A stretch of 64,000 bases of DNA, taken from positions 64,885-128,884 of the forward strand of contig JBDRLN010000066.1 of the NCBI GenBank assembly GCA_043812955.1. The letters are read 5' to 3'. Within the stretch, counting starts at the first letter, position 1. Each line of letters begins with the position of its first letter. Below, one piece after another: positions 5,705 through 53,032 of the stretch. The notes under the pieces are model-generated. The model was given only the letters and a program-made list of their open reading frames with translations, was not told the DNA's origin and searched no databases. A program made the position numbers and the translations under genes. This stretch comes from Candidatus Omnitrophota bacterium (GTDB lineage: Bacteria > Omnitrophota > Gorgyraeia > Gygaellales > Profunditerraquicolaceae).

Positions 5705-7518
5705 CCGATAAAGAATTAGAGAATTTATTAATAAGGACTAAACTTTTAACCCAAGAAGAGCTTTTCCGGGCTGTTGATGAGATGAAAAAACTCAAGCGGC
5801 CTTTAGAAAAAGTTATTTTGGAAATATGTCTTCTCTCCCGTCCGGTGCTTTATGAGGCGATTGCCAAGCACCTGGGGTATGAATATATAAAACTTGAAGA
5901 GGTTGAGCCGGATCCGGAATTGATCAAAGTTATGCCTGAGGCCTTGGCCCGCCAGACCCAATCTGTCCCCATAAAAATAGAAAATAATACTCTGCATGTG
6001 GCGGTAACCGACCCCACTGACCTTTATTCCATTGACCAGATCCAGATGCATACCGGGATGGCTTTGGAGGTGGTTTTATCCAGTCCCCAGGAAATAGAGG
6101 ATAGGCAGAACAAGCTTTATGTAGATCACAGGGTTAACAAAGATTTCATGGAGGATCTGACTAGGGCGGTGTCTTCAGATGTCAAGATTGTATTTACCGA
6201 TGCAAGCTCTATAATTAAATTAGTTGACTTGATTGTTGCTCAGGCAGCGCATGACCGGGCCTCGGATATCCATATTGAGCCGGAACAAGAAATGACCCGG
6301 ATAAGGTTTCGGATCGACGGCATACTGCATGAAATACCGTCTCCCCCCAAGGAATGGGAACAGGCGATTGTCTCCAGGGTCAAGGTATTGGCAGGCATGG
6401 ATATCGCTGAAAGCCGGGTTCCCCAGGATGGGCATTTCCAGGCTAAGATAGAAGAAAGGATCATTGATTTTCGTGTTTCTACCGTGCCTACTATTTTCGG
6501 AGAAAATTTGGTTATGCGTTTATTGGATACGAATTCAGTAACCATCGGTTTGGAAAAATTAGGGTTTACTACTTATGATGAATTAAAAAGATATGAAGCT
6601 ATTATCTCTAGGCCTTACGGAATAATTTTATCAACTGGTCCTACGGGGAGCGGTAAAACCACCACTCTTTATTCAGCCTTGATGCGGATTAATACCATTG
6701 ATCGCAATATTATCACTATCGAAGACCCGGTTGAATACCGCCTCGGACTTATCCGGCAGATCCAGGTAAACCCTAAGGCCGGGATCACTTTTGCTAATGG
6801 GCTAAGGGCGATCCTGCGCCAGGATCCTGATGTTTTAATGGTCGGCGAGATCCGGGACCTGGAGACCGCCATAATCGCTATCCAGTCCGCCCTAACCGGA
6901 CATTTGGTCTTTTCCACCCTACATACTAATGATGCGCCTTCGGCAGTCACTCGTTTAGTCAATATGGGAGTTGAGCCTTTTTTGATCTCAGCTTGTTTGA
7001 TCGGAGTTATGGCCCAGCGCCTGATCCGGACCATCTGTGATAAGTGCAAAGAGTCTTACGAGCCATCTAAATCCCTAATAGAAAGATGGGGATTAAGCGA
7101 TAAAAAAGGAGTTGTTTTATACCGGGGTAAAGGATGTGATAATTGTAAAGGCACAGGTTTTCGGGGGCGCAGCGGGCTATTTGAATTAATGACAGTTGAT
7201 GATGAACTAAGAGAGATGATTATCTCGGAAAGCTCTACTGTTTTATTACGTAATAAATCCCGGGAAAAAGGCATGCGGGTTTTAAGCGAGGACGGGATCG
7301 CTAAGGCCCTGGCTGGCATCACTACTATTGAAGAAGTGGCCAGGGTATGCGAAGAGCGGGTGGAGATTAAAAAGACCGAAGAATCGGTAGTTAAGGTCGA
7401 GCCTTTTATTAAGACTGCGTCAACAGCTCAAAAATCCGGAGCTAAGCCTATAGAGGTTAAGGTCTCGGATTATGAAGAATACCAGAAGCGCATAGCTAAC
7501 TGGTTAAGCAATAAATAG
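5701..7518 (+). CDS. pilB: Type IV pilus assembly (extension) ATPase PilB/GspE family
   Basis: N-terminal T2SSE_N domain; Walker A GPTGSGKTTT; DPVEY; Walker B/His box (VGEIRD); tetra-Cys (CDKC...CDNC). It carries a ~60-aa C-terminal extension. Confidence 0.9.
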   Translation: MTDKELENLLIRTKLLTQEELFRAVDEMKKLKRPLEKVILEICLLSRPVLYEAIAKHLGYEYIKLEEVEPDPELIKVMPEALARQTQSVPIKIENNTLHVAVTDPTDLYSIDQIQMHTGMALEVVLSSPQEIEDRQNKLYVDHRVNKDFMEDLTRAVSSDVKIVFTDASSIIKLVDLIVAQAAHDRASDIHIEPEQEMTRIRFRIDGILHEIPSPPKEWEQAIVSRVKVLAGMDIAESRVPQDGHFQAKIEERIIDFRVSTVPTIFGENLVMRLLDTNSVTIGLEKLGFTTYDELKRYEAIISRPYGIILSTGPTGSGKTTTLYSALMRINTIDRNIITIEDPVEYRLGLIRQIQVNPKAGITFANGLRAILRQDPDVLMVGEIRDLETAIIAIQSALTGHLVFSTLHTNDAPSAVTRLVNMGVEPFLISACLIGVMAQRLIRTICDKCKESYEPSKSLIERWGLSDKKGVVLYRGKGCDNCKGTGFRGRSGLFELMTVDDELREMIISESSTVLLRNKSREKGMRVLSEDGIAKALAGITTIEEVARVCEERVEIKKTEESVVKVEPFIKTASTAQKSGAKPIEVKVSDYEEYQKRIANWLSNK

Positions 7519-14619: not shown

Positions 14620-14753
14620 TTATTTTAATATTTGTTATATTGTAGCATATTCTTAAGAAACTAACAGTTTTTTTATTAATTTTTTTTATCAAGAGCGAGG
14701 ATTTAGTTATTTCCCAAATTTGTAGCAAAAGGCAAAGATCTTGATTGCGCAGA

Positions 14754-14894
14754 TTTTTCCCGCCAAGCAAATATAACATCTGGCGGGATCCCGCTAGCTA
14801 TTTTAATTAACCTGGCGGGAAAGAGGATTACACAGATTCAAGGATGAGTTTTCAATCAATGAAATCTGTATTTTCCCGCAACGCGGGATCCCGG
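14754..14894. repeat. Two copies of the TTTCCCGC...GCGGGATCCCG palindromic repeat family (third locus of the family)
   Basis: ttttcccgccaagc...ctggcgggatcccgctag and ttttcccgcaacgcgggatcccggtag. GCGGGATCCCGC is a perfect 12-bp palindrome. Confidence 0.7.
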
Positions 14895-15038
14895 TAGATT
14901 TTTTTTATTTTGGTACGGGATAATCGGTGCAATCAGAGGTTAGCGGTGTGGTTTTTAAAAATTTTTCAGGCAACCTCGGTGATTTCTCTTGACATAATTC
15001 TTAAGTAATTTATAATTCTAATATAAGGAGTATGAAAA

Positions 15039-15422
15039 ATGGCGAGAGTTATGATAGTAGATGACGCGCTTTTTATGCGTAAAATGCTGACTAAGACCTT
15101 GACCGAAGCCGGCCATGAAGTCTTGGCTGAGGCAGGCAATGCCAAAGAAGCCGTAGAGAAATATAAAAAGTTCAAACCGGACCTGGTAACTATGGACATT
15201 GTAATGCCATTGATGGAAGAGATGGATGGCATTGGCGCGGTAAAAGAGATCATTAGGATTGACCCCAAGGCCAAAATCCTGGTTTGTTCGGTAATGGGCC
15301 AGCAGTCGCTGGTAGTGGAAGCTATTCGTTCCGGCGCCAAGGATTTTGTGATTAAGCCTATCAAGCCTGAGAGGCTGATCGAGGCGGTGAATAAGGCGCT
15401 GATGTCCCAAGATAAAAAATAA
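15039..15422 (+). CDS. cheY: Chemotaxis response regulator CheY
   Basis: Single receiver domain, 127 aa, with D-D...D (TMDIVMP)...K. A TTGACA-N16-TATAAT promoter lies ~50 nt upstream. Confidence 0.85.
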   Translation: MARVMIVDDALFMRKMLTKTLTEAGHEVLAEAGNAKEAVEKYKKFKPDLVTMDIVMPLMEEMDGIGAVKEIIRIDPKAKILVCSVMGQQSLVVEAIRSGAKDFVIKPIKPERLIEAVNKALMSQDKK

Positions 15423-23336: not shown

Positions 23337-23945
23337 ATGTATTCCAGGTTGAATTTGATCCAGATGGATGTATTAAAGGAGTTGAGCTCGATCGGTTCAG
23401 CTAACGCCGCTACCGCTCTTTCTTCGTTGGTTTCCAGTAGAGTTGAAATTACAGTGCCTCAGGTGAATCTGGTGCCTTTGGAGAATATATCCAGTTTGTT
23501 CGGGGGTATGGATAAGTTACTTTTTGTGCTGGATACGGAGTTAAAAGGCGATATATCGGGGAGGATATTTATATTCCTGTCTCTTGAAGACGCCAAGGGC
23601 CTGGGGGGGATGCTTCTGGGAAAATCTCCGGAAGAAGTGGATATCAGAGATGAGATGTTCCTTTCCTCGCTTAAAGAATCCGCCAATATACTGGGGGGTT
23701 CTTATATATCAGCCCTGGCTGAGATGACCAACATGCTCATACTTAACTCAACGCCTTCTTTAGCTATTGATATGGTGGGGGCGGTATTGGATTTTATCTT
23801 TATTAAGATCGCCCAATATTCCGAAGAGGTGCTTTTTATCAGGAATTCACTTCAGGTTCACGGCAAGAACCTGAACAGTTTAATAATGTTATTCCCGGAC
23901 AATGAATCACTTATCAAAATTTTTGAGACATTAAATGTAAAATAA
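23337..23945 (+). CDS. cheC: CheC/CheX-family phosphatase (second copy)
   Basis: ELSSIGSANAATALS and ESANILGGSYISALA motifs. Confidence 0.7.
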   Translation: MYSRLNLIQMDVLKELSSIGSANAATALSSLVSSRVEITVPQVNLVPLENISSLFGGMDKLLFVLDTELKGDISGRIFIFLSLEDAKGLGGMLLGKSPEEVDIRDEMFLSSLKESANILGGSYISALAEMTNMLILNSTPSLAIDMVGAVLDFIFIKIAQYSEEVLFIRNSLQVHGKNLNSLIMLFPDNESLIKIFETLNVK

Positions 23946-24051
23946 AGGAGCGCGTTCATATCCCGACTGCGTCGGGATCTCACTAAATGCCCGCCTGAGA
24001 GTGAGGCAGGCGCCAAAAAGCAGCGCAAAATTGTGTTCGAGGAGGTATAAG

Positions 24052-24552
24052 ATGGCTACGGAGAAATCCAAGGAATTTCAATTAGTTGTTTTTACTCTTG
24101 GCGATGAAGAATTTGGAGTGGACATTGCTCAGGTGAGGGAGATCGTAAGGCTGGTCCAGATCACCTATCTGCCTAAAGCCCCTTCTTTTATCGAGGGCGT
24201 GGTAAACTTAAGAGGGCAGGTCTTGGCGGTTATTGACCTTTCTAAAAGGTTAAACATCCCTTCTAAGACCCGGGGAGAACAATCCAGAATCATAGTGGTA
24301 GAGGTAAGCGATAATACTGTTGGTATGATCGTAGATTCTGTCTCTGAGGTATTACGTTTGTCTTCGGATAATGTAGAGGGGGTTCCTAGTTTAGTTGAGA
24401 CTGAGGTGGCGGAACACTATATACGGGGAGTGGGAAAATTAAAAGACAGGCTTTTGGTCCTTTTGGATTTGAACCGGGTCTTGAGCCAGGAAGAAGTCCA
24501 GCATGTGGATCAACATGTAAAAGTGGCCGTAAATAGCATAAAGCCTGAATAA
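24052..24552 (+). CDS. cheW: Chemotaxis coupling protein CheW
   Basis: Single CheW domain (FGVDIAQVREI...IEGVVNLRG). ATG at 24052 behind a GAGGAGGT RBS. The track's upstream extension covers the conserved leader. Confidence 0.85.
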   Translation: MATEKSKEFQLVVFTLGDEEFGVDIAQVREIVRLVQITYLPKAPSFIEGVVNLRGQVLAVIDLSKRLNIPSKTRGEQSRIIVVEVSDNTVGMIVDSVSEVLRLSSDNVEGVPSLVETEVAEHYIRGVGKLKDRLLVLLDLNRVLSQEEVQHVDQHVKVAVNSIKPE

Positions 24553-41143: not shown

Positions 41144-41176
41144 AAAAAACCGCCAATTGCTTGGCGGTTTTTTTAG
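41144..41176. terminator. Bidirectional rho-independent terminator (A-run, AACCGCCAA-ttgc-TTGGCGGTT, T-run)
   Basis: Read directly. Confidence 0.75.
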
Positions 41177-41181
41177 GTTAA

Positions 41182-41380
41182 TTGCGAGGAGAGGACCTTC
41201 CCGCTTAAATCATTTTATTATCTGAAGCGGGATCCCGACTATACAATGGTGGATACGGCGAGAACCTTTCTATTAATATATTGCGGGGGCATGATTTTCC
41301 CGCCAACATGATCTATAATCATAGCGGGATCTCGACTGTTCAATGGTGGAAATCGGGAGAACATGCCTATTTTAAATTAT
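41182..41380. repeat. Two tandem ~100-bp units of the GCGGGATCCCGAC repeat family, each starting with a degenerate copy of the tRNA-fMet 3' end
   Basis: ttgcgaggagagga (41182) and ttgcgggggcatga (41281) against the tRNA 3' end ttgcggggagagga (41381). Units share TTTCCCGC-N24-GCGGGATC(C/T)CGACT-N4-CAATGGTGGA-N5-G(C/G)GAGAAC. Confidence 0.75.
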
Positions 41381-41454
41381 TTGCGGGGAGAGGATTTGAA
41401 CCTCTGACCTCAAGGTTATGAGCCTTGCGAGCTACCAGGCTGCTCCACCCCGCG
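41381..41454 (-). tRNA. tRNA-fMet (anticodon CAU, initiator-type; CCA not encoded)
   Basis: Cloverleaf folds. CGCGGGGUGGAGCAGCCUGGUAGCUCG...GGUUCAAAUCC...CCCCGCAA closely follows the bacterial initiator tRNA. C1.A72 mismatch. Confidence 0.8.
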
Positions 41455-41519
41455 AAATTTCTACCCAAACAAAGAACAACGTAAACGTATTATAACTCAA
41501 AAAAATAAATAATCCAGGT

Positions 41520-50213: not shown

Positions 50214-51503
50214 TCATAGTAATTCCTTTTTTGCTCTTTTTATGGATTGAACCAAGTTACGATTTGCCGGGCAGACGAAACTACATATCCCGCATTCAAT
50301 ACAGTCTAATGCGCCGTTTAATTTAGTTTGTTCCCAGAGTTGTTTTTCCGAAGCCAGGTTTATCAAGCAGGGCATTAAGCCCATCGGGCATTCCCGGATA
50401 CAGGCTCCGCAGCGGATACAGAAATCCTCTTCGTACGGCTTAGCCTCTTTTTCATTAAGCAGGATGACCCCGGAGGTAGTTTTAATAGCCGGGACTGTAT
50501 CGGTATATTGGGTAATACCCATCATCGGTCCTCCGATTATTATTTTTGCCGGTTTTTCTTTTACCGGAACGCAGAAATCAATCAGGTTTTTTATAGGAGT
50601 ACCGATCCTGGTGAGAATATTCTTGGGGCTGGTAAGGCAACTGCCAGTTACAGTAATAACCCTTTCATATAAAGGTTTCTTTAGATAAACTGCTTCATAA
50701 ATCGCGAATACCGTAGCAATATTTTGAATTATTACCCCTAAATCAAAAGGGAGTTTATTTCGGGGTATTTCCTTACCTAATATATTTTTTATAAGTTGTT
50801 TTTCGCTGCCTTGCGGGTAAGCGCTTTTTAATACTTTTACTGTGAACTGTGAACTGTGAGCTGTGAACTTATCAATGGCTTCAGGTTTATTATCCTCAAT
50901 AGCGATATACATATTTTTCACCCCTAGGCATTTAGCGGTTAATTCTATGCCTAGGAGTATTTCTTGGGTTTTCTCAATCATCAGACTATAGTCGGCGCTA
51001 AGATATGGTTCGCATTCCGCGGCATTAATAATTAGGGTTTCTATCTGCTTTGGAGGATTAAGTTTGATATGGGTGGGAAATCCTGCTCCACCCATGCCTA
51101 CGATACCGGCCTCGAATATAATATCCCGGATTTGTTGGGGAGTTAGCTGATCCAGCAAGGAAGGCGCCCGGTGTCCGGTGTCCTGGTGTCCTGGTGCCTT
51201 GGTGTCGGATAAATCCTTAAAATTATTTTCAATGACTATTGCCTGTGAGCGGCCAAGGGTTGGATGCGGCCAATTCTTTATATCAATAACCGTTCCCGAA
51301 ACAGAAGAATGGATAGGCGCGTATACCTGCGCTTGAACATCAGCGATTTTTTGTCCTAGGGTTACCTCTTCACCAATTTTTACTAAAGGCAGACAGGGTT
51401 TACCGATGTGCTGACTCAAAGGTATATAAACTTTAGATGGCGAAGGCGCTGGTTGGGTAGTGATGTTTTTTGTCCTATCTTTATTTTCGGTTAATCTAAC
51501 CAT
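50214..51503 (-). CDS. rnfC: Rnf complex subunit C
   Basis: NADH-binding region and two ferredoxin motifs (CIRCGACIRECP; CIECGICSFVCP). Carries two internal tandem-repeat insertions. Confidence 0.85.
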   Translation of the reverse strand: MVRLTENKDRTKNITTQPAPSPSKVYIPLSQHIGKPCLPLVKIGEEVTLGQKIADVQAQVYAPIHSSVSGTVIDIKNWPHPTLGRSQAIVIENNFKDLSDTKAPGHQDTGHRAPSLLDQLTPQQIRDIIFEAGIVGMGGAGFPTHIKLNPPKQIETLIINAAECEPYLSADYSLMIEKTQEILLGIELTAKCLGVKNMYIAIEDNKPEAIDKFTAHSSQFTVKVLKSAYPQGSEKQLIKNILGKEIPRNKLPFDLGVIIQNIATVFAIYEAVYLKKPLYERVITVTGSCLTSPKNILTRIGTPIKNLIDFCVPVKEKPAKIIIGGPMMGITQYTDTVPAIKTTSGVILLNEKEAKPYEEDFCIRCGACIRECPMGLMPCLINLASEKQLWEQTKLNGALDCIECGICSFVCPANRNLVQSIKRAKKELL

Positions 51504-52747
51504 GAGAGCTTGTGATTGATAATAAAATTAATTAATCCTAGAACGCTGATTATGCTGCCTACGGCAGTAAGTATGAATAATGGGGGTATTTTATCAGCGA
51601 GTATGCTGCTGATGAACATAAAAATCAGGAAACCCAGGTGCATTACTATTTCCATCGAGCTGAAGATCTTGCCCATCATATGATTAACGCTAGCCCTATG
51701 AATAATAGTGTTTGAGGCTATCATGATAGGGGCTGTCGTCAGGCCCAGAGTCAACGAGAGGATGATTGCCAGCGAAAAGTGCGGGTAATGATTTATTCCT
51801 GAGGCAAAGACAATCAGCATTATTCCGGTTAAGGTAAGCGAGGTGAATATTGTCTTGTATTGGGATAGCTTTTGGCCAAAACGGCCATAGGCCAAAGACC
51901 CCAAGAGCAGGCCTAAGCCTAAGAACATAGCCAGCAACCCTAAGTCTTTAGTCGCTGAATGCAGGCTTTTCTGGACAAAGACTATTATTACCACATATAC
52001 TGCGCCTAATGCTGACCAAAGAGTGAATATTATCCCGGTAGTGAACCTAATGTTTTTATTTCTGATAAAATACAACGTCCCTTCTTTTATCTCGGCAAAT
52101 ACCGATTTCTTGATCACATCAACGATCTCTTTGCCTACTTCTTTAAGGCTAATCTGGGAGCTCGCTCTTTTAGCGATCGAGAATATCAATAATCCTGAGA
52201 CCAGGAAACTTAATGAGTCTAAATAAAATCCGCTTTTAGCTCCTACCCATTCCACTATTACGCCGCTGATACCAAATCCTAAAATAGCCGCGATCATCCC
52301 GGTGATATTGACCAGTGAATTAGCTATAAGTAAGTCTTTTTTTTCCACCAGGTCGGGGATTATGGAAAGTTTTGCCAGGACAAAAAATCTGCCGATTGAA
52401 AAAACCAAGAATATAATCAGGTAGATTACCCAGGTCAGGCTTTTACTGTAGAATAAAAATAAAGGGATAGTCAAGACTAGGGCTGCCCGTAATAAATCGC
52501 ACGTATACATAACCTTGCGTCTGTTCCACCGGTCAACGTATACGCCAGCTATAGGGCCAATGATAAAAACCGGGATTATGGTAAAAGAGAGTATTTTAGC
52601 GATTTCGATCGCTGAACCAGGAGTTCGGGAATAAACAAAAGCGATTAAAGCCATCTGGTCCAGCCGGTCGCCCAGCTGGGATATGATCTGGCCTATCCAG
52701 AGGAGAAAGAAATTCCTGTTTTTTAATATTTTTCTGAATTGGGACAT
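51491..52747 (-). CDS. MFS transporter (12 TM helices)
   Basis: Hydropathy. Loop GDRLDQ and D-RWNRR motifs between TM2 and TM3. Confidence 0.75.
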   Translation of the reverse strand: MSQFRKILKNRNFFLLWIGQIISQLGDRLDQMALIAFVYSRTPGSAIEIAKILSFTIIPVFIIGPIAGVYVDRWNRRKVMYTCDLLRAALVLTIPLFLFYSKSLTWVIYLIIFLVFSIGRFFVLAKLSIIPDLVEKKDLLIANSLVNITGMIAAILGFGISGVIVEWVGAKSGFYLDSLSFLVSGLLIFSIAKRASSQISLKEVGKEIVDVIKKSVFAEIKEGTLYFIRNKNIRFTTGIIFTLWSALGAVYVVIIVFVQKSLHSATKDLGLLAMFLGLGLLLGSLAYGRFGQKLSQYKTIFTSLTLTGIMLIVFASGINHYPHFSLAIILSLTLGLTTAPIMIASNTIIHRASVNHMMGKIFSSMEIVMHLGFLIFMFISSILADKIPPLFILTAVGSIISVLGLINFIINHKLSWLD

Positions 52748-52750
52748 TTG

Positions 52751-52956
52751 AATATTTTTCTGGAACCGATGAGTGGAATTTCCCGCTGATTAGCCGTAAT
52801 TGTCAAGCGGGATCCCGACCGAGCAATATAAATGTCGGGAGAACCACTGGTTATTTAAAGCCGGCGGGGGGAGTTTCCCGCCCTCAGTTCTCAAAAAGTA
52901 GGCGGGATCCCGACTATGCAATAGTGAGTCTCGGGAGAACCCTCCTAATATTTTTC
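52751..52956. repeat. 30-bp direct repeat of the tRNA-Thr 3' end (52751-52780, 29/30 identical to 52947-52976) followed by two tandem ~95-bp units of the GCGGGATCCCGAC repeat family
   Basis: aatatttttctggaaccgatgagtggaatt against aatatttttctggagccgatgagtggaatt. The units match those at 41182-41380. Confidence 0.8.
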
Positions 52957-53032
52957 TGGAGCCGATGAGTGGAATTGAACCACCGACCTTGACTTTACGA
53001 AAGTCCTGCTCTACCAACTGAGCTACATCGGC
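52957..53032 (-). tRNA. tRNA-Thr (anticodon CGU; CCA encoded)
   Basis: 7-bp acceptor stem GCCGATG/CATCGGC. D, anticodon (UUCGUAA loop) and T arms fold. Confidence 0.8.

Follow-up and report, generated by a model that had tools for sequence, protein, structure and literature searches.

Downstream of a tRNA-Thr gene of a Candidatus Omnitrophota bacterium, a second copy of the gene's 3' end lies on the far side of a short block of repeats. We wondered what the intervening sequence is and how it came to be there. The first-pass annotation of this 64-kb stretch of DNA (the window) had proposed an active or recently active mobile element with a target-site-like duplication.

The inserts behind tRNA-Thr and tRNA-fMet

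The repeat itself stands as it was first described. The 30-mers at 52751-52780 and 52947-52976, which hold the tRNA-Thr 3' end and 10 nt of flank, agree at 29 of 30 positions (one mismatch), and no such pair arose in 100 shuffles. The 166 bp between them do contain two members of one repeat family, 52781-52840 and 52876-52936, which score ~48 and ~47 bits under a covariance model (R1) trained on 69 family members, three of them from this window. The limits that had been drawn for the repeat unit were wrong: the conserved core is a double hairpin (DH) occupying the T-loop of a partial tRNA copy. Because tRNA homology resumes beyond the distal unit, with GTGGTTC, the duplicate is a 37-nt partial copy of tRNA-Thr with a 60-nt double hairpin splitting its T-loop. 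The units make most sense as a pair of cassettes, X (proximal) and Y (distal), the distal 30-bp copy being the right arm of cassette Y plus flank. The locus reads as follows.

52957-53032, minus strand: intact tRNA-Thr(CGT), CCA encoded (ARAGORN; 65.9 bits with the Rfam tRNA model)
52947-52976, minus strand: proximal 30-bp repeat copy, from T-loop A57 to CCA (20 nt), with 10 nt of 3' flank, gaaaaatatt
52937-52946, minus strand: left arm of cassette X, aggagGGTTC, a T-stem-5'-like strand plus TTC
52876-52936: double hairpin DH-D, TCCCGCC-N18-GGCGGGA / TCCCGAC-N15-(G)TCTCGGGA (R1 47.5 bits, E=4e-11)
52860-52875, minus strand: right arm of cassette X (AACTCCCCCCGCCGGC), T-stem 3' strand and acceptor 3' strand of the tRNA-Thr type of other lineages
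52841-52847, minus strand: left arm of cassette Y, GTGGTTC, equal to the T-stem 5' strand of the resident tRNA-Thr plus TTC
52781-52840: double hairpin DH-C, TCCCGC-N20-GCGGGA / TCCCGAC-N14-GTCGGGA (R1 48.4 bits, E=2.5e-11)
52751-52780, minus strand: distal 30-bp repeat copy, made of the right arm of cassette Y (AATTCCACTCATCGGTTCCA) and the original 10-nt flank
51491-52747, minus strand: MFS transporter gene directly downstream of the cassettes (Pfam MFS_1, 7.5e-28), its start codon 3 nt beyond the distal repeat copy

Cassettes of this kind run from a short spacer through the T-stem 5' strand with TTC, the DH, the rest of the T-loop and the T-stem 3' strand to the acceptor 3' strand. They measure ~95-110 bp, of which the DH makes up ~60 nt, and are non-coding. 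In the predicted RNA and DNA folds, a three-way junction is closed by the left arm of cassette Y, and the left arm of cassette X is predicted to pair with 52863-52872. The right arm of cassette X shares 6 of 8 acceptor bases with the resident tRNA-Thr and resembles both the arm at the orthologous locus of the relative L129 (AACTCCTCTCGCCGGCT) and the tRNA-Thr 3' end of L134 (AAGTCCTCTCGTCGGCT). We rejected an origin of cassette X from tRNA-fMet, since tRNA-Thr 3' ends from other lineages match its arm. What had been listed as a GCGGGGG(G)AGTTTCCCGCC junction is no separate motif: there the proximal cassette's T-stem 3' strand and acceptor-like tail abut DH-D.

Comparison with orthologous loci, as the first-pass annotation had suggested, was made with the MFS gene as the syntenic anchor. 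In the closest relatives, tRNA-Thr is directly followed by the MFS start codon: L116 and L117 (MFS 90% identical) have the tRNA, then taaaaatattt, then aaATG, and L119-L122 are likewise without an insert. The tRNA-Thr of L116 is identical to that of the window, and alignment with this empty site identifies the 10 nt after the distal cassette as the ancestral tRNA-to-MFS spacer. Occupancy is patchy, the locus being filled in L129, L138, L140 and L188 and empty in L116, L119 and L122. An identical cassette arm, GATTCCACTCATCGGCT, is present in L138, L140 and L188 despite differing DH loops, and L138 and L140 retain it while their resident T-stem is GAGGG/CCCCC.

A second tRNA had been said to carry the same insert of about two units, and it does; the window also has a third locus.

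41380-41455, minus strand: intact initiator tRNA-fMet with a C1:A72 mismatch, the second tRNA with cassette architecture
41298-41358: DH-B, in the proximal fMet cassette, with left arm GGCATGTTC and right arm AAAATCATGCCCCCGCAA (41281-41297) (R1 26.9 bits)
41199-41263: DH-A, in the distal fMet cassette, second stem decayed (GGCGAGA) (R1 27.6 bits)
41182-41198, minus strand: right arm of the distal fMet cassette (AGGTCCTCTCCTCGCAA), 14/17 identical to the tRNA 3' end
41150-41175, minus strand: Rho-independent terminator CCGCCAAGCAATTGGCGG plus T-run, downstream of the fMet cassettes
14758-14820: third locus, first double hairpin, no adjoining tRNA (R1 53.9 bits; inverted repeats)
14874-14920: second double hairpin of the third locus, shortened, lying upstream of a CheY-like gene (R1 23.7 bits)

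The closing stem of the proximal fMet cassette, GGCATG/CATGCC, is present in the predicted fold. The ancestral flank now lies behind the distal cassette arm and is followed by the terminator; the sequence directly after the tRNA is new. In L125 (enolase 90% identical) the site is empty, tRNA-fMet being followed by ttaataataaaaaa (14 nt) and then by the window's terminator, which is kept in L123 as well. Since the sites at both tRNA-Thr and tRNA-fMet are empty in the closest relatives, the cassettes were gained in this lineage. The terminator lies downstream of the fMet cassettes, which places them inside the predicted tRNA-fMet transcription unit. At the third locus an inverted duplication surrounds the DHs, and the CheY-like gene beside them is the ORF at 15039-15422 (Pfam Response_reg).

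The double hairpin and its distribution

The DH consists of two abutting hairpins with 7-bp stems, TCCCGCC..GGCGGGA, joined at GGGA|TCCC. Its head, TCCCG, is invariant in 69 aligned copies, as the search pattern demanded. Stem positions 6 and 7, which the pattern left free, form Watson-Crick pairs in 83% and 80% of copies and show C:G, T:A and A:T variants; position 8 is unpaired. The stems contain 49 double-change cells versus 10.5 in shuffles, demonstrating real hairpins conserved with covariation. Stem sequences are conserved phylum-wide, and the fold predicted for the three-way junction is better than that of shuffles (z = -2.9 as RNA and -3.1 as DNA).

The junctions of the DH are exact: the flanks rejoin as a 7-nt T-loop with no duplicated bases. 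The duplicated tRNA segment differs in length between loci, from ~17 to >80 nt. On both counts the proposed target-site-like duplication had to be given up. The flanks are biased, with T at -2 in 54 of 71 DHs and A at +2 in 59 of 71, but the target amounts to only a TTY|NAA preference; the commonest flanking tetramers are GTTC (17) and CTTG (8) among 142 flank ends. Flank complementarity at DH sites was no higher than in a shuffled control (25; shuffles averaged 19.4 and reached 29), so a hairpin-loop target is unsupported as a general requirement.

The DH pattern is concentrated in Candidatus Omnitrophota MAGs and occurs in a few CPR MAGs (Uhrbacteria, Kerfeldbacteria). Its single match in IMG/VR was a chance one, in GC-rich sequence, and on that ground we rejected a viral origin. 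More than half of the copies, ~40 of 71 family-like DHs by our reading of the flanks, occupy the T-, anticodon- or D-loop of a partial tRNA copy beside an intact tRNA; roughly half of all DHs are found outside tRNA sequence, at AT-rich sites flanked by TTY|NAA. The family adjoins tRNAs of at least 10 isotypes in many genomes. In metagenomes, an intact tRNA on the same strand lies no more than 500 nt upstream of 79 of the 85 T-loop DHs, mostly at 10-40 nt, with 10 isotypes represented. The first-pass annotation had considered that the 30-bp copy might be a partial tRNA pseudogene unrelated to the repeats, recognizable by homology beyond the repeat unit. A partial pseudogene it is, and the homology does extend; the pairing in 79 of 85 cases shows that it is not unrelated.

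A tRNA may have from 1 to 4 or more cassettes, and decayed copies exist, for example DH-A with its broken stem. Mirror-image cassettes with 5' tRNA parts sit upstream of tRNAs. In low-GC fetched loci, which were selected for containing a DH, a partial copy lies within 350 nt of 23 of the 77 tRNAs. Among the tRNAs of the fetched loci, a less biased sample, each 3' partial copy starts at the T-loop and therefore carries the insertion; no unoccupied 3' partial copy was seen there. The left arm consists in every case of the stem strand alone (5-12 nt) and does not stop at a random breakpoint. The full-length tRNA-Glu of one metagenome locus, L197, has a DH in its T-loop, and the 2.8-kb contig contains no intact copy. 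Some duplication junctions contain filler sequence. Hairpins of other families were found at these same tRNA-copy positions. Dispersed DH copies inside one genome sometimes share 85-93% loop identity; most share only ~65%, and most genomes thus give no sign of a recent burst.

Taken together, these results uphold part of the proposal that the insert is a mobile element and not a product of chance. The lineage-specific gain, the recurrence at many isotypes and the non-chance repeat all favor it, and cassette mobility is supported. The repeat, however, is no target-site duplication.

How the cassettes may move

The cassettes are non-autonomous elements. The search for a recombinase or transposase that the first-pass annotation had recommended came up empty: neither of these, nor a reverse transcriptase, is encoded among the 60 ORFs of the window, and all three are absent from the 25 commonest families in 103 ORFs flanking DHs elsewhere. 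No RAYT gene was found in the window or among those 25 families, and no Y1 or Y2 transposase gene was found in the window or beside DH copies.

We compared 68 distinct cassettes with their resident tRNAs. The acceptor strand with the discriminator is identical to that of the resident tRNA in 44 of the 68 and at least 7/8 identical in 55. By contrast, the T-stem 3' strand is unlike the resident one at two or more of 5 positions in 41/68, and the cassette's own T-stem is fully paired in 38/68, versus 7.7 expected from shuffling. A T-stem that differs while the acceptor strand matches points to recombination within the acceptor strand. A crossover in the T-loop would predict hybrid, mispaired stems and could not yield the observed pattern; one 3' of the T-stem could. 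We rejected a circular element with its crossover in the T-loop, at the DH|b junction (b being the tRNA segment 3' of the insertion point), because the observed stems are self-consistent but discordant, not hybrid.

Our preferred reading, which we hold with a little less than even confidence, is that the units are ~100-bp non-autonomous integrative cassettes, recombining in the acceptor strand and moved in trans by an enzyme encoded elsewhere. A cassette would join directly behind an intact tRNA gene and leave the tRNA undamaged, its acceptor-strand segment recombining with the matching segment of the resident tRNA; the identity is sometimes extended by T-loop or flank bases. Integration would be a miniature, without proteins of its own, of the attL/attR scheme used by elements that integrate at tRNA genes. 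The resulting order at tRNA-Thr would be the resident tRNA, cassette X of another lineage's type, cassette Y of the resident's own type, the original flank and the MFS gene, and the 30-bp direct repeat would be the identity segment at either side. Arrays would grow via further integration or unequal crossing-over. The crossover would probably lie in the acceptor strand, a recombinase or other enzyme would act in trans, and the predicted three-way junction of closing T-like stem and DH may be the feature that it recognizes.

This reading has its difficulties. Neither an enzyme nor a circular or excised form was found in the data examined, and a ~100-bp double-stranded DNA circle is physically awkward as an intermediate. 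Cassette X shares only 6/8 acceptor bases, so its arrival would need a composite X+Y element or some other route. The position of the DH exactly in the T-loop (or anticodon or D-loop) is left unexplained, as are the half or so of DHs in AT-rich TTY|NAA sites. The tRNA-Glu of L197 and the low loop identity of most within-genome copies also count against it, and the arm kept in L138, L140 and L188 while DH loops diverge could equally mean a host-level function.

The DHs outside tRNA sequence would be accounted for by two independent processes, a reading that we consider doubtful. Ordinary partial tRNA copies would arise as att scars, by short tandem duplications or by replication template switching at highly transcribed tRNA genes, and the DH would belong with REP-, PATE- or MITE-like elements, mobilised by a single-stranded DNA transposase (for example of the HUH, IS200/IS605 or IS91 type). 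It would enter TTY|RAA in hairpin loops without duplication; insertions into essential tRNA genes would be lethal, so that only those in redundant fragments survive. The exact junctions that restore the 7-nt T-loop argue for such an insertion, and so do the flank preference with its common GTTC and CTTG tetramers, the full-length tRNA-Glu of L197 and the presence of other-family hairpins at the same positions. The DHs also use three tRNA loops (T, anticodon at 35/36, and D) that should remain single-stranded in a gene strand folded as a tRNA. Two independent processes are, however, hard to reconcile with the fact that all 3' partial copies in the fetched loci carry the insertion, or with left arms that always end as a stem strand. 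Self-paired, discordant T-stems next to matching acceptors fit neither decaying duplicates nor T-loop att scars, and no transposase was found near any copy.

It is unlikely that the host maintains the cassettes as a functional module of RNA or DNA. Such a module could be a co-transcribed trailer whose acceptor strand may pair with the tRNA 5' acceptor strand and modulate processing or stability, or, at the DNA level, a decoy or variant of the tRNA attachment site against integrating phages. An acceptor strand kept as that of the resident tRNA, with a T-stem that varies with compensation, is what might be expected of it; the constant arm of L138, L140 and L188, the place of the fMet cassettes before the terminator, the predicted three-way junction and the phylum-wide stem sequences point the same way. 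Yet the cassettes are patchy among close relatives (L116, L122 and L125 are empty), their number per tRNA is variable and some are decayed, they match no Rfam family, and many DHs are unconnected with tRNAs.

Replicative insertion coupled to repair, in which a loop nick would prime strand displacement and the flap, from T-arm to flank, would gain a DH and be religated, is very unlikely, as is its variant, microhomology-mediated template switching between T-loops. Duplication and insertion would arise in one event, and the local sequence duplicated at tRNA-Thr, with its 10 nt of locus-specific flank (L033, L067 and L188 are similar), the variable duplicated length, the inverted duplication at the third locus and the filler at some junctions are all consistent with this; but it fails on the 41/68 cassettes whose T-stem is unlike that of the resident tRNA on both strands, the sequence after tRNA-fMet is not the original flank, and we know of no precedent enzyme.

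Further candidates were rejected. Pairs of single hairpins flanking an ORF, as expected for a larger autonomous element bounded by them, are absent from 115 loci. An intron-like insert fails because in-silico excision restored a tRNA in 0 of 128 genome copies and 1 of 85 metagenome copies (L197), and there was no Rfam match to the group I intron model. As for a known RNA family, in searches extended to E = 10 only the two tRNAs reach the gathering score in Rfam 15, and the other best E-values are 0.1 or worse. A fixed-stagger enzyme (casposase/Cas1-like, or IS1202-like with a long target duplication) is at odds with the variable duplicated length. A MITE derived from a DDE transposon would suit the inverted ends TCCCGCC / GGCGGGA, but the flanks join without duplicated bases.

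That the cassettes represent an unrecognised system at tRNA gene ends in ultra-small bacteria (Omnitrophota, CPR) we judge to be unlikely, taking two versions together. In the first, protein-less tRNA-end cassettes would offer the three-way junction as a folded recombination site to a dedicated recombinase, by analogy with the folded sites integron attC and CTX phage attP. Recombination at a folded DNA site, if that is the mechanism, would add a minimal member to the structure-dependent site-specific systems. In the second, host-maintained modules would keep their acceptor strand matched to the resident tRNA; if so, they may supply alternative T-arm or 3'-end versions, explaining fast T-stem turnover between close relatives, or may mask tRNA attachment sites from integrating phages. 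The literature searched, mostly outside subscription journals, contains no description of Omnitrophota repeats, double-hairpin elements or T-loop-split partial tRNAs of this kind, or of the motif.

For annotation, the cassettes matter as a source of partial tRNA copies and because they can interrupt assemblies at tRNA loci. For tRNA evolution, they may explain T-stem differences between close relatives. The DH also provides a concrete searchable motif for phylogenetic profiling toward the responsible enzyme.

Comparison with known systems

The DHs resemble the REP/BIME/REPIN elements mobilised by RAYT/TnpA-REP in being paired short GC-rich hairpins, intergenic and non-autonomous, with many diverged copies per genome whose stems are conserved and whose loops vary. 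Unlike those elements, the DHs have the head TCCCG, which the search pattern demanded, and neither GTAG nor CGTC. Their hairpins abut without a spacer and have loops of 16-20 nt, and, whereas REP/BIME/REPIN elements are species-specific, the DH motif is conserved across the phylum and into CPR and is tied to tRNA-fragment loops. With IS200/IS605 PATEs and IS91-type elements the DH shares a hairpin at each end, the absence of target duplication, plausibly single-stranded targets and a preference for a short T-rich target (TTC|; GTTC/CTTG as for IS91). Unlike them, it lacks a single fixed target tetranucleotide, and the element is only two hairpins.

Small repeats at structural RNA genes offer other parallels. 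The tyrT locus of E. coli has tandem repeats of 178 bp, and the final part of each copies the last 19 nt of tRNA-Tyr. Like the cassettes, they are tandem units downstream of a tRNA, each with a copy of its 3' end, and those of tyrT are co-transcribed with the tRNA. Unlike the cassettes, they belong to a single locus in one species, with no conserved double hairpin or T-arm mimic, and are not known to recur across tRNAs or genomes. Rickettsia palindromic elements (RPEs) are small palindromic repeats tolerated inside functional genes, including RNA genes. RPEs stay in functional products, whereas the tRNA pieces interrupted by cassettes are non-functional fragments beside an intact gene. The double-hairpin elements of Allomyces, and the related GC-cluster and hairpin repeats, are organellar and encode no protein. 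In them, too, two adjacent hairpins form a small mobile unit in intergenic DNA and structural RNA regions. The term itself appears in the literature, for the mitochondrial double-hairpin elements of Allomyces. The likeness is by description only, and, unlike the cassettes, the Allomyces elements come without reported partial tRNA duplication or acceptor-strand matching.

Parallels are also found at tRNA genes, which are classic landing sites of mobile DNA. Phages, ICEs and genomic islands target them, and the gene-less derivatives of such elements, the CIMEs (cis-mobilizable elements), are known from work on Streptococcus thermophilus. As with tRNA-integrating elements and CIMEs, the cassette insert lies directly 3' of an intact tRNA, flanked by direct repeats of the tRNA 3' end (14/17 at fMet), and the corresponding attB sites are empty in relatives. 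Cassettes also accrete in tandem, and each carries its own tRNA 3' segment. Like a CIME, they have att-like repeats and no genes; a CIME would in addition be mobilised in trans by the integrase of a related element. We rejected an integrase-encoding element of this class: the insert behind tRNA-Thr, at 166 bp, is non-coding, and no integrase or other recombinase is encoded by the 60 ORFs of the 64 kb. The cassettes differ further in that their arm is split in the T-loop by a conserved double hairpin, in the existence of mirror-image cassettes upstream of tRNAs, and in a T-stem discordance that would put any crossover in the acceptor strand and not in the 7-nt loops. The occupants known from tRNA sites have kilobase sizes and bring an integrase gene with them; here, a gene-less cassette of ~100 bp appears to use such sites throughout a phylum of ultra-small bacteria, all uncultured, and in some lineages of CPR.

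Double hairpins behind two tRNA genes

ARAGORN and Rfam identified two tRNAs in the window. Beside tRNA-Thr(CGT), the 30-mers at 52751-52780 and 52947-52976 differ by one mismatch; no comparable pair occurred in 100 dinucleotide-preserving shuffles. Read in the direction of the tRNA, the repeat spans 20 nt from T-loop A57 through the encoded CCA, plus 10 nt of flank. The 166 bp separating its copies contain two members of a repeat family and two more lie 3' of the initiator tRNA-fMet, confirming the first-pass annotation, which had described a near-identical repeat around two units at tRNA-Thr and a second tRNA with about two units. A third, weak copy (67%) of the repeat start (AATATTTTTCTGAATTGGGAC..) lies at 52725-52754, within the first MFS codons; it is AT-rich and may be a chance match.

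The annotation was wrong to take 'GCGGGATCCCGAC' as the conserved core of the repeat unit: the core is a ~60-nt double hairpin (DH). Each hairpin reads TCCCGCC-N16-20-GGCGGGA or is an inner-stem variant (e.g. TCCCGAC..GTCGGGA), and the two abut where GGGA meets TCCC. No Rfam family matched the DH. A covariance model trained on 69 DH copies found six in the window, three of them from its own training set, at three loci.

tRNAs (ARAGORN and Rfam) and DH copies (covariance model) in the window
52957-53032, minus: tRNA-Thr(CGT)
41380-41455, minus: initiator tRNA-fMet
52781-52840: DH, tRNA-Thr locus
52876-52936: DH, tRNA-Thr locus
41199-41263: DH, tRNA-fMet locus
41298-41358: DH, tRNA-fMet locus
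14758-14820: DH, third locus (no tRNA)
14874-14920: DH, third locus (no tRNA)

On the tRNA strand, the distal tRNA-Thr unit reads ccaGTGGTTC[DH]AATTCCACTCATCGGTTCCA: the T-arm of tRNA-Thr with the DH between C56 and A57, then the acceptor 3' strand and CCA. The proximal unit, aggagGGTTC[DH]AACTCCCCCCGCCGGC, has a different T-arm-like stem and an acceptor-like tail. We call such a tRNA-like arm with a DH in its T-loop a cassette, and the intact tRNA that it adjoins the resident. In the same way, tRNA-fMet is followed by aGGCATGTTC[DH]AAAATCATGCCCCCGCAA, gaaaGGTTC[DH]AGGTCCTCTCCTCGCAA, the original flank and a rho-independent terminator. RNA and DNA folding predict a three-way junction of the closing T-like stem and the two hairpins, with fold energies that beat shuffles at tRNA-Thr (z = -2.9 and -3.1 for RNA and DNA) and at tRNA-fMet (z = -2.2).

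The third locus (14740-14945) adjoins no tRNA and lies ~100 nt upstream of a CheY-like gene (15039-15422). Its DH and shortened DH (14874-14920) flank a central hairpin (14825-14876), and outer inverted repeats picked out by eye, TGATTGCGCAGATT and AATCGGTGCAATCA, enclose it wholly; the arrangement resembles a DH-bearing segment duplicated in inverted orientation. A lone short hairpin, TCCCGACTGCGTCGGGA (23961-23977), sits between a CheC-like gene (23337-23945) and a CheW gene (24001-24552); at 12 bits against the DH model (E about 0.06), its family membership is uncertain.

Empty sites in relatives and distribution of the family

The window is part of a Candidatus Omnitrophota MAG. We retrieved orthologous loci through the neighbouring genes, MFS at tRNA-Thr and enolase at tRNA-fMet; the window's MFS protein and enolase each have a 100% identical NCBI entry. 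In L116 and L117, comparison loci of the closest relative available (MFS 90% identical), taaaaatatttaaATG, the MFS start codon, comes after an identical tRNA-Thr, and the gap holds neither hairpin nor repeat; the site is also empty in two more distant relatives. In these relatives, the presence/absence comparison that the first-pass annotation had proposed finds the insert missing. At tRNA-fMet, L125 (enolase 90% identical) has the tRNA, 14 nt and then the window's terminator CCGCCAAGCAATTGGCGG; small hairpins of a different kind are present in L123 (93%) and L127 (83%). The window's original fMet flank sits behind the distal cassette, and what directly follows the intact tRNA is new sequence. 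From the empty sites and the displaced flank it follows that each of the two tRNAs gained its pair of units once its lineage had diverged from these relatives.

The T-stem of the initiator tRNA (window 41391-41410) is wholly different among close relatives, the remaining tRNA being nearly identical: AGAGG/CCTCT in the window, GCAAG/CTTGC in L123 and L125, GATAG/CTATC in L127. The window's proximal fMet cassette has GCATG/CATGC, close to the relatives' version.

Scanning one genome per species with the structural pattern TCCCGC-N-GCGGGATCCCG-N-CGGGA gave at least 115 loci. The low-GC matches listed come overwhelmingly from MAGs of Ca. Omnitrophota or labelled Planctomycetales or 'bacterium'; the complete genome of Ca. 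Velamenicoccus archaeovorus, Ca. Uhrbacteria and Ca. Kerfeldbacteria are also among the matches listed. High-GC matches (Sphingomonas, actinomycetes) were rejected as unrelated repeats or chance. Sphingomonad repeats, e.g. ..GTCACCCCGG-N-CCGGGGTCCCGC.., fit the pattern but are genome-specific and outside the family (Sphingomonas/Novosphingobium L010, L012, L037, L052, L065, L085, L094, L101, L102); unrelated repeats of Ca. Pullilachnospira also match (L011, L028, L035, L045, L063).

The DH hairpins are real. Stem positions 6 and 7, left free by the search pattern, form Watson-Crick pairs in 83% and 80% of 87 copies, and the pairs include C:G, T:A and A:T variants; position 8 is unpaired. In a 69-sequence alignment, double-change cells number 49 versus 10.5 in shuffles, and shifting the partner strand abolishes stem pairing. 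Typical pairs of copies within a genome share ~65% loop identity, which argues against a recent burst in most genomes; some dispersed copies reach 85-93%.

DH flanks are biased towards TTY before and NAA after the element. About 40 of 71 family-like copies among the matches listed, judged by eye from flank listings, lie in the T-loop, anticodon loop (35/36) or D-loop of a partial tRNA, 3'-part copies downstream of the intact tRNA and 5'-part copies upstream. A partial copy (at least 11 nt, within 350 nt) stands beside 23 of the 77 tRNAs of low-GC loci, and all 3' partial copies there begin in the T-loop. We rejected the DH as a tRNA intron: in-silico removal restored a complete tRNA in 0 of 128 cases. 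Members of the family are also found in MAGs of CPR/Patescibacteria type (L093, Ca. Uhrbacteria; L097, Ca. Kerfeldbacteria; L062, L084 and L099, 'bacterium DeMMO3_36'), with the subfamily consensus TCCCGCCGAC..TTTGGCGGGATCCCGCCAAA..GTCGGCGGGA; in L093 and L097 the DH splits the T-loop of a partial tRNA copy, which lies behind an intact tRNA.

Several other hairpin families sit at the same kinds of position. A separate small family, (A/G)TCCC..CG-N4-6-CG..GGGAT (~20 nt; L123:4105-4150, L127:4050-4100, and L061, where it precedes the tRNA-Met at about 6859-6935), is placed after the initial 8-11 nt of a 5' partial tRNA copy that adjoins the intact tRNA on its upstream side; in L127 the copied tRNA bases recur behind the hairpin as their reverse complement (GGTGGA...TCCACC). 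Loops of partial tRNA copies hold further insertions (L030, L034, L081, L111, L044, L086). In L030 a T-loop contains the 13-nt mini-hairpin GGCCGAAGGCC, and in L034 an anticodon loop contains a hairpin with a 13-bp stem, TCACCGGAATTTT..; in L081 and L111, tRNA-Glu T-loops contain a TCCCG or CCCCG hairpin and a second long hairpin, in tandem arrays. tRNA fragments split by a hairpin seem to be a general trait of these genomes. At L034:3747-3873, an intact tRNA-Gly(TCC) shares its acceptor 3' strand (TCCCGC) with the first DH hairpin, whose 5' strand it forms. In sequence, GCGGGA/TCCCGC of the DH equals the tRNA-Gly acceptor stem of these genomes, which may be a coincidence or a clue to DH origin.

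Cassettes and their resident tRNAs

A metagenome scan for GTTC, DH and RANTCC (a DH in T-loop context) gave 85 matches. An intact same-strand tRNA lies at most 500 nt upstream in 79, mostly at 10-40 nt, and the residents represent ten isotypes. The acceptor 3' strand with discriminator is the resident's in 44 of 68 distinct cassettes and identical at no fewer than 7 of 8 positions in 55. The T-stem 3' strand is unlike the resident's at two or more of 5 positions in 41, and the cassette's own T-like stem is fully paired in 38 (7.7 expected from shuffled pairings). By these counts, resident and cassette each have a self-consistent, often different, T-stem and share the acceptor strand.

Among orthologues of the tRNA-Thr(CGT)-to-MFS locus, L138, L140 and L188 have one cassette each, with arm GATTCCACTCATCGGCT; the resident T-stem of L138 and L140, GAGGG/CCCCC, is unlike it. 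The site is empty in L116, L119 and L122. In the window, the proximal tRNA-Thr cassette has the right arm AACTCCCCCCGCCGGCTT, which resembles the L129 cassette (AACTCCTCTCGCCGGCTT) and the L134 tRNA-Thr 3' end. The arm is therefore the 3' part of a tRNA-Thr of another lineage's type and not a piece of tRNA-fMet.

The metagenome contig Ga0272443_10044432 (L197, 2.8 kb) carries a full-length tRNA-Glu(TTC) with a DH in its T-loop (about 2190-2400, minus) and no intact tRNA elsewhere. Excising the DH in silico restores tRNA-Glu; the gene may be a pseudogene, or its tRNA may tolerate or eliminate the insert.

Candidate mechanism and known systems

The simplest model fitting all constraints, to which we tentatively give slightly less than an even chance, is a cassette recombining through the acceptor strand. 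The unit would comprise, in order, spacer, T5'-TTC, DH, RAN-T3' and acceptor strand, and recombination confined to the acceptor-strand segment would join it behind a tRNA. The resident T-arm would remain chromosomal, the cassette would supply its own T-like stem, the shared acceptor strand would be the identity segment and the original flank would finish behind the last cassette. Arrays (four units in L087; L033, L111) could extend by repeated addition or unequal crossing-over. In the distal tRNA-Thr cassette the T-stem is the resident's, so the repeat reaches 30 bp. The first-pass idea of a mobile repeat with att-like duplication at two tRNAs is largely right; its unit limits and the nature of the duplication are revised here. 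The suggestion of a recombinase or transposase acting from elsewhere found no candidate: no recombinase, transposase or reverse transcriptase is among the 60 window ORFs (type IV pilus/T2SS, chemotaxis, Rnf, enolase, FtsH and similar), ORFs flanking DHs elsewhere are housekeeping genes, and, apart from one chance match in GC-rich sequence, the DH pattern was not found in viral contigs.

Somewhat unlikely is a pair of independent processes, in which a REP- or PATE-like DH, specific for single strands, persists only where tRNA fragments are redundant. A host-maintained functional module is decidedly less probable, and nick-primed or template-switch insertion with coupled duplication is very improbable. 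A local duplication into which the DH was inserted afterwards would account for the tRNA-Thr locus, with its duplicated 10 nt of locus-specific flank, but not for the discordant cassettes or the new sequence after tRNA-fMet. Crossover in the T-loop, by a classic T-loop integrase or a circle opened between the DH and the tRNA segment 3' of the insertion point (the DH-b junction), would leave hybrid T-stems, which the 41 discordant cassettes contradict. Duplicated lengths of ~17 to >80 nt contradict a fixed staggered cut.

We found no description of these cassettes in the accessible literature. A 2025 preprint describes Patescibacteria tRNAs with group I introns at position 35/36, a loop position common to some DHs but occupied by a different kind of element. 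DH hairpins resemble REP/BIME, PATEs and mitochondrial double-hairpin elements but, where testable, are without their defining heads, fixed targets or associated transposases. The logic of an acceptor-strand cassette is similar to that of attL/attR in tRNA-integrating elements and their gene-less CIME derivatives. What sets the cassettes apart is their size, their lack of any gene, a T-arm split by hairpins, the position inferred for the crossover and the occurrence of mirror-image 5' cassettes. We classify them among small non-autonomous elements at tRNA attachment sites, and consider it unlikely that they are something more unusual.
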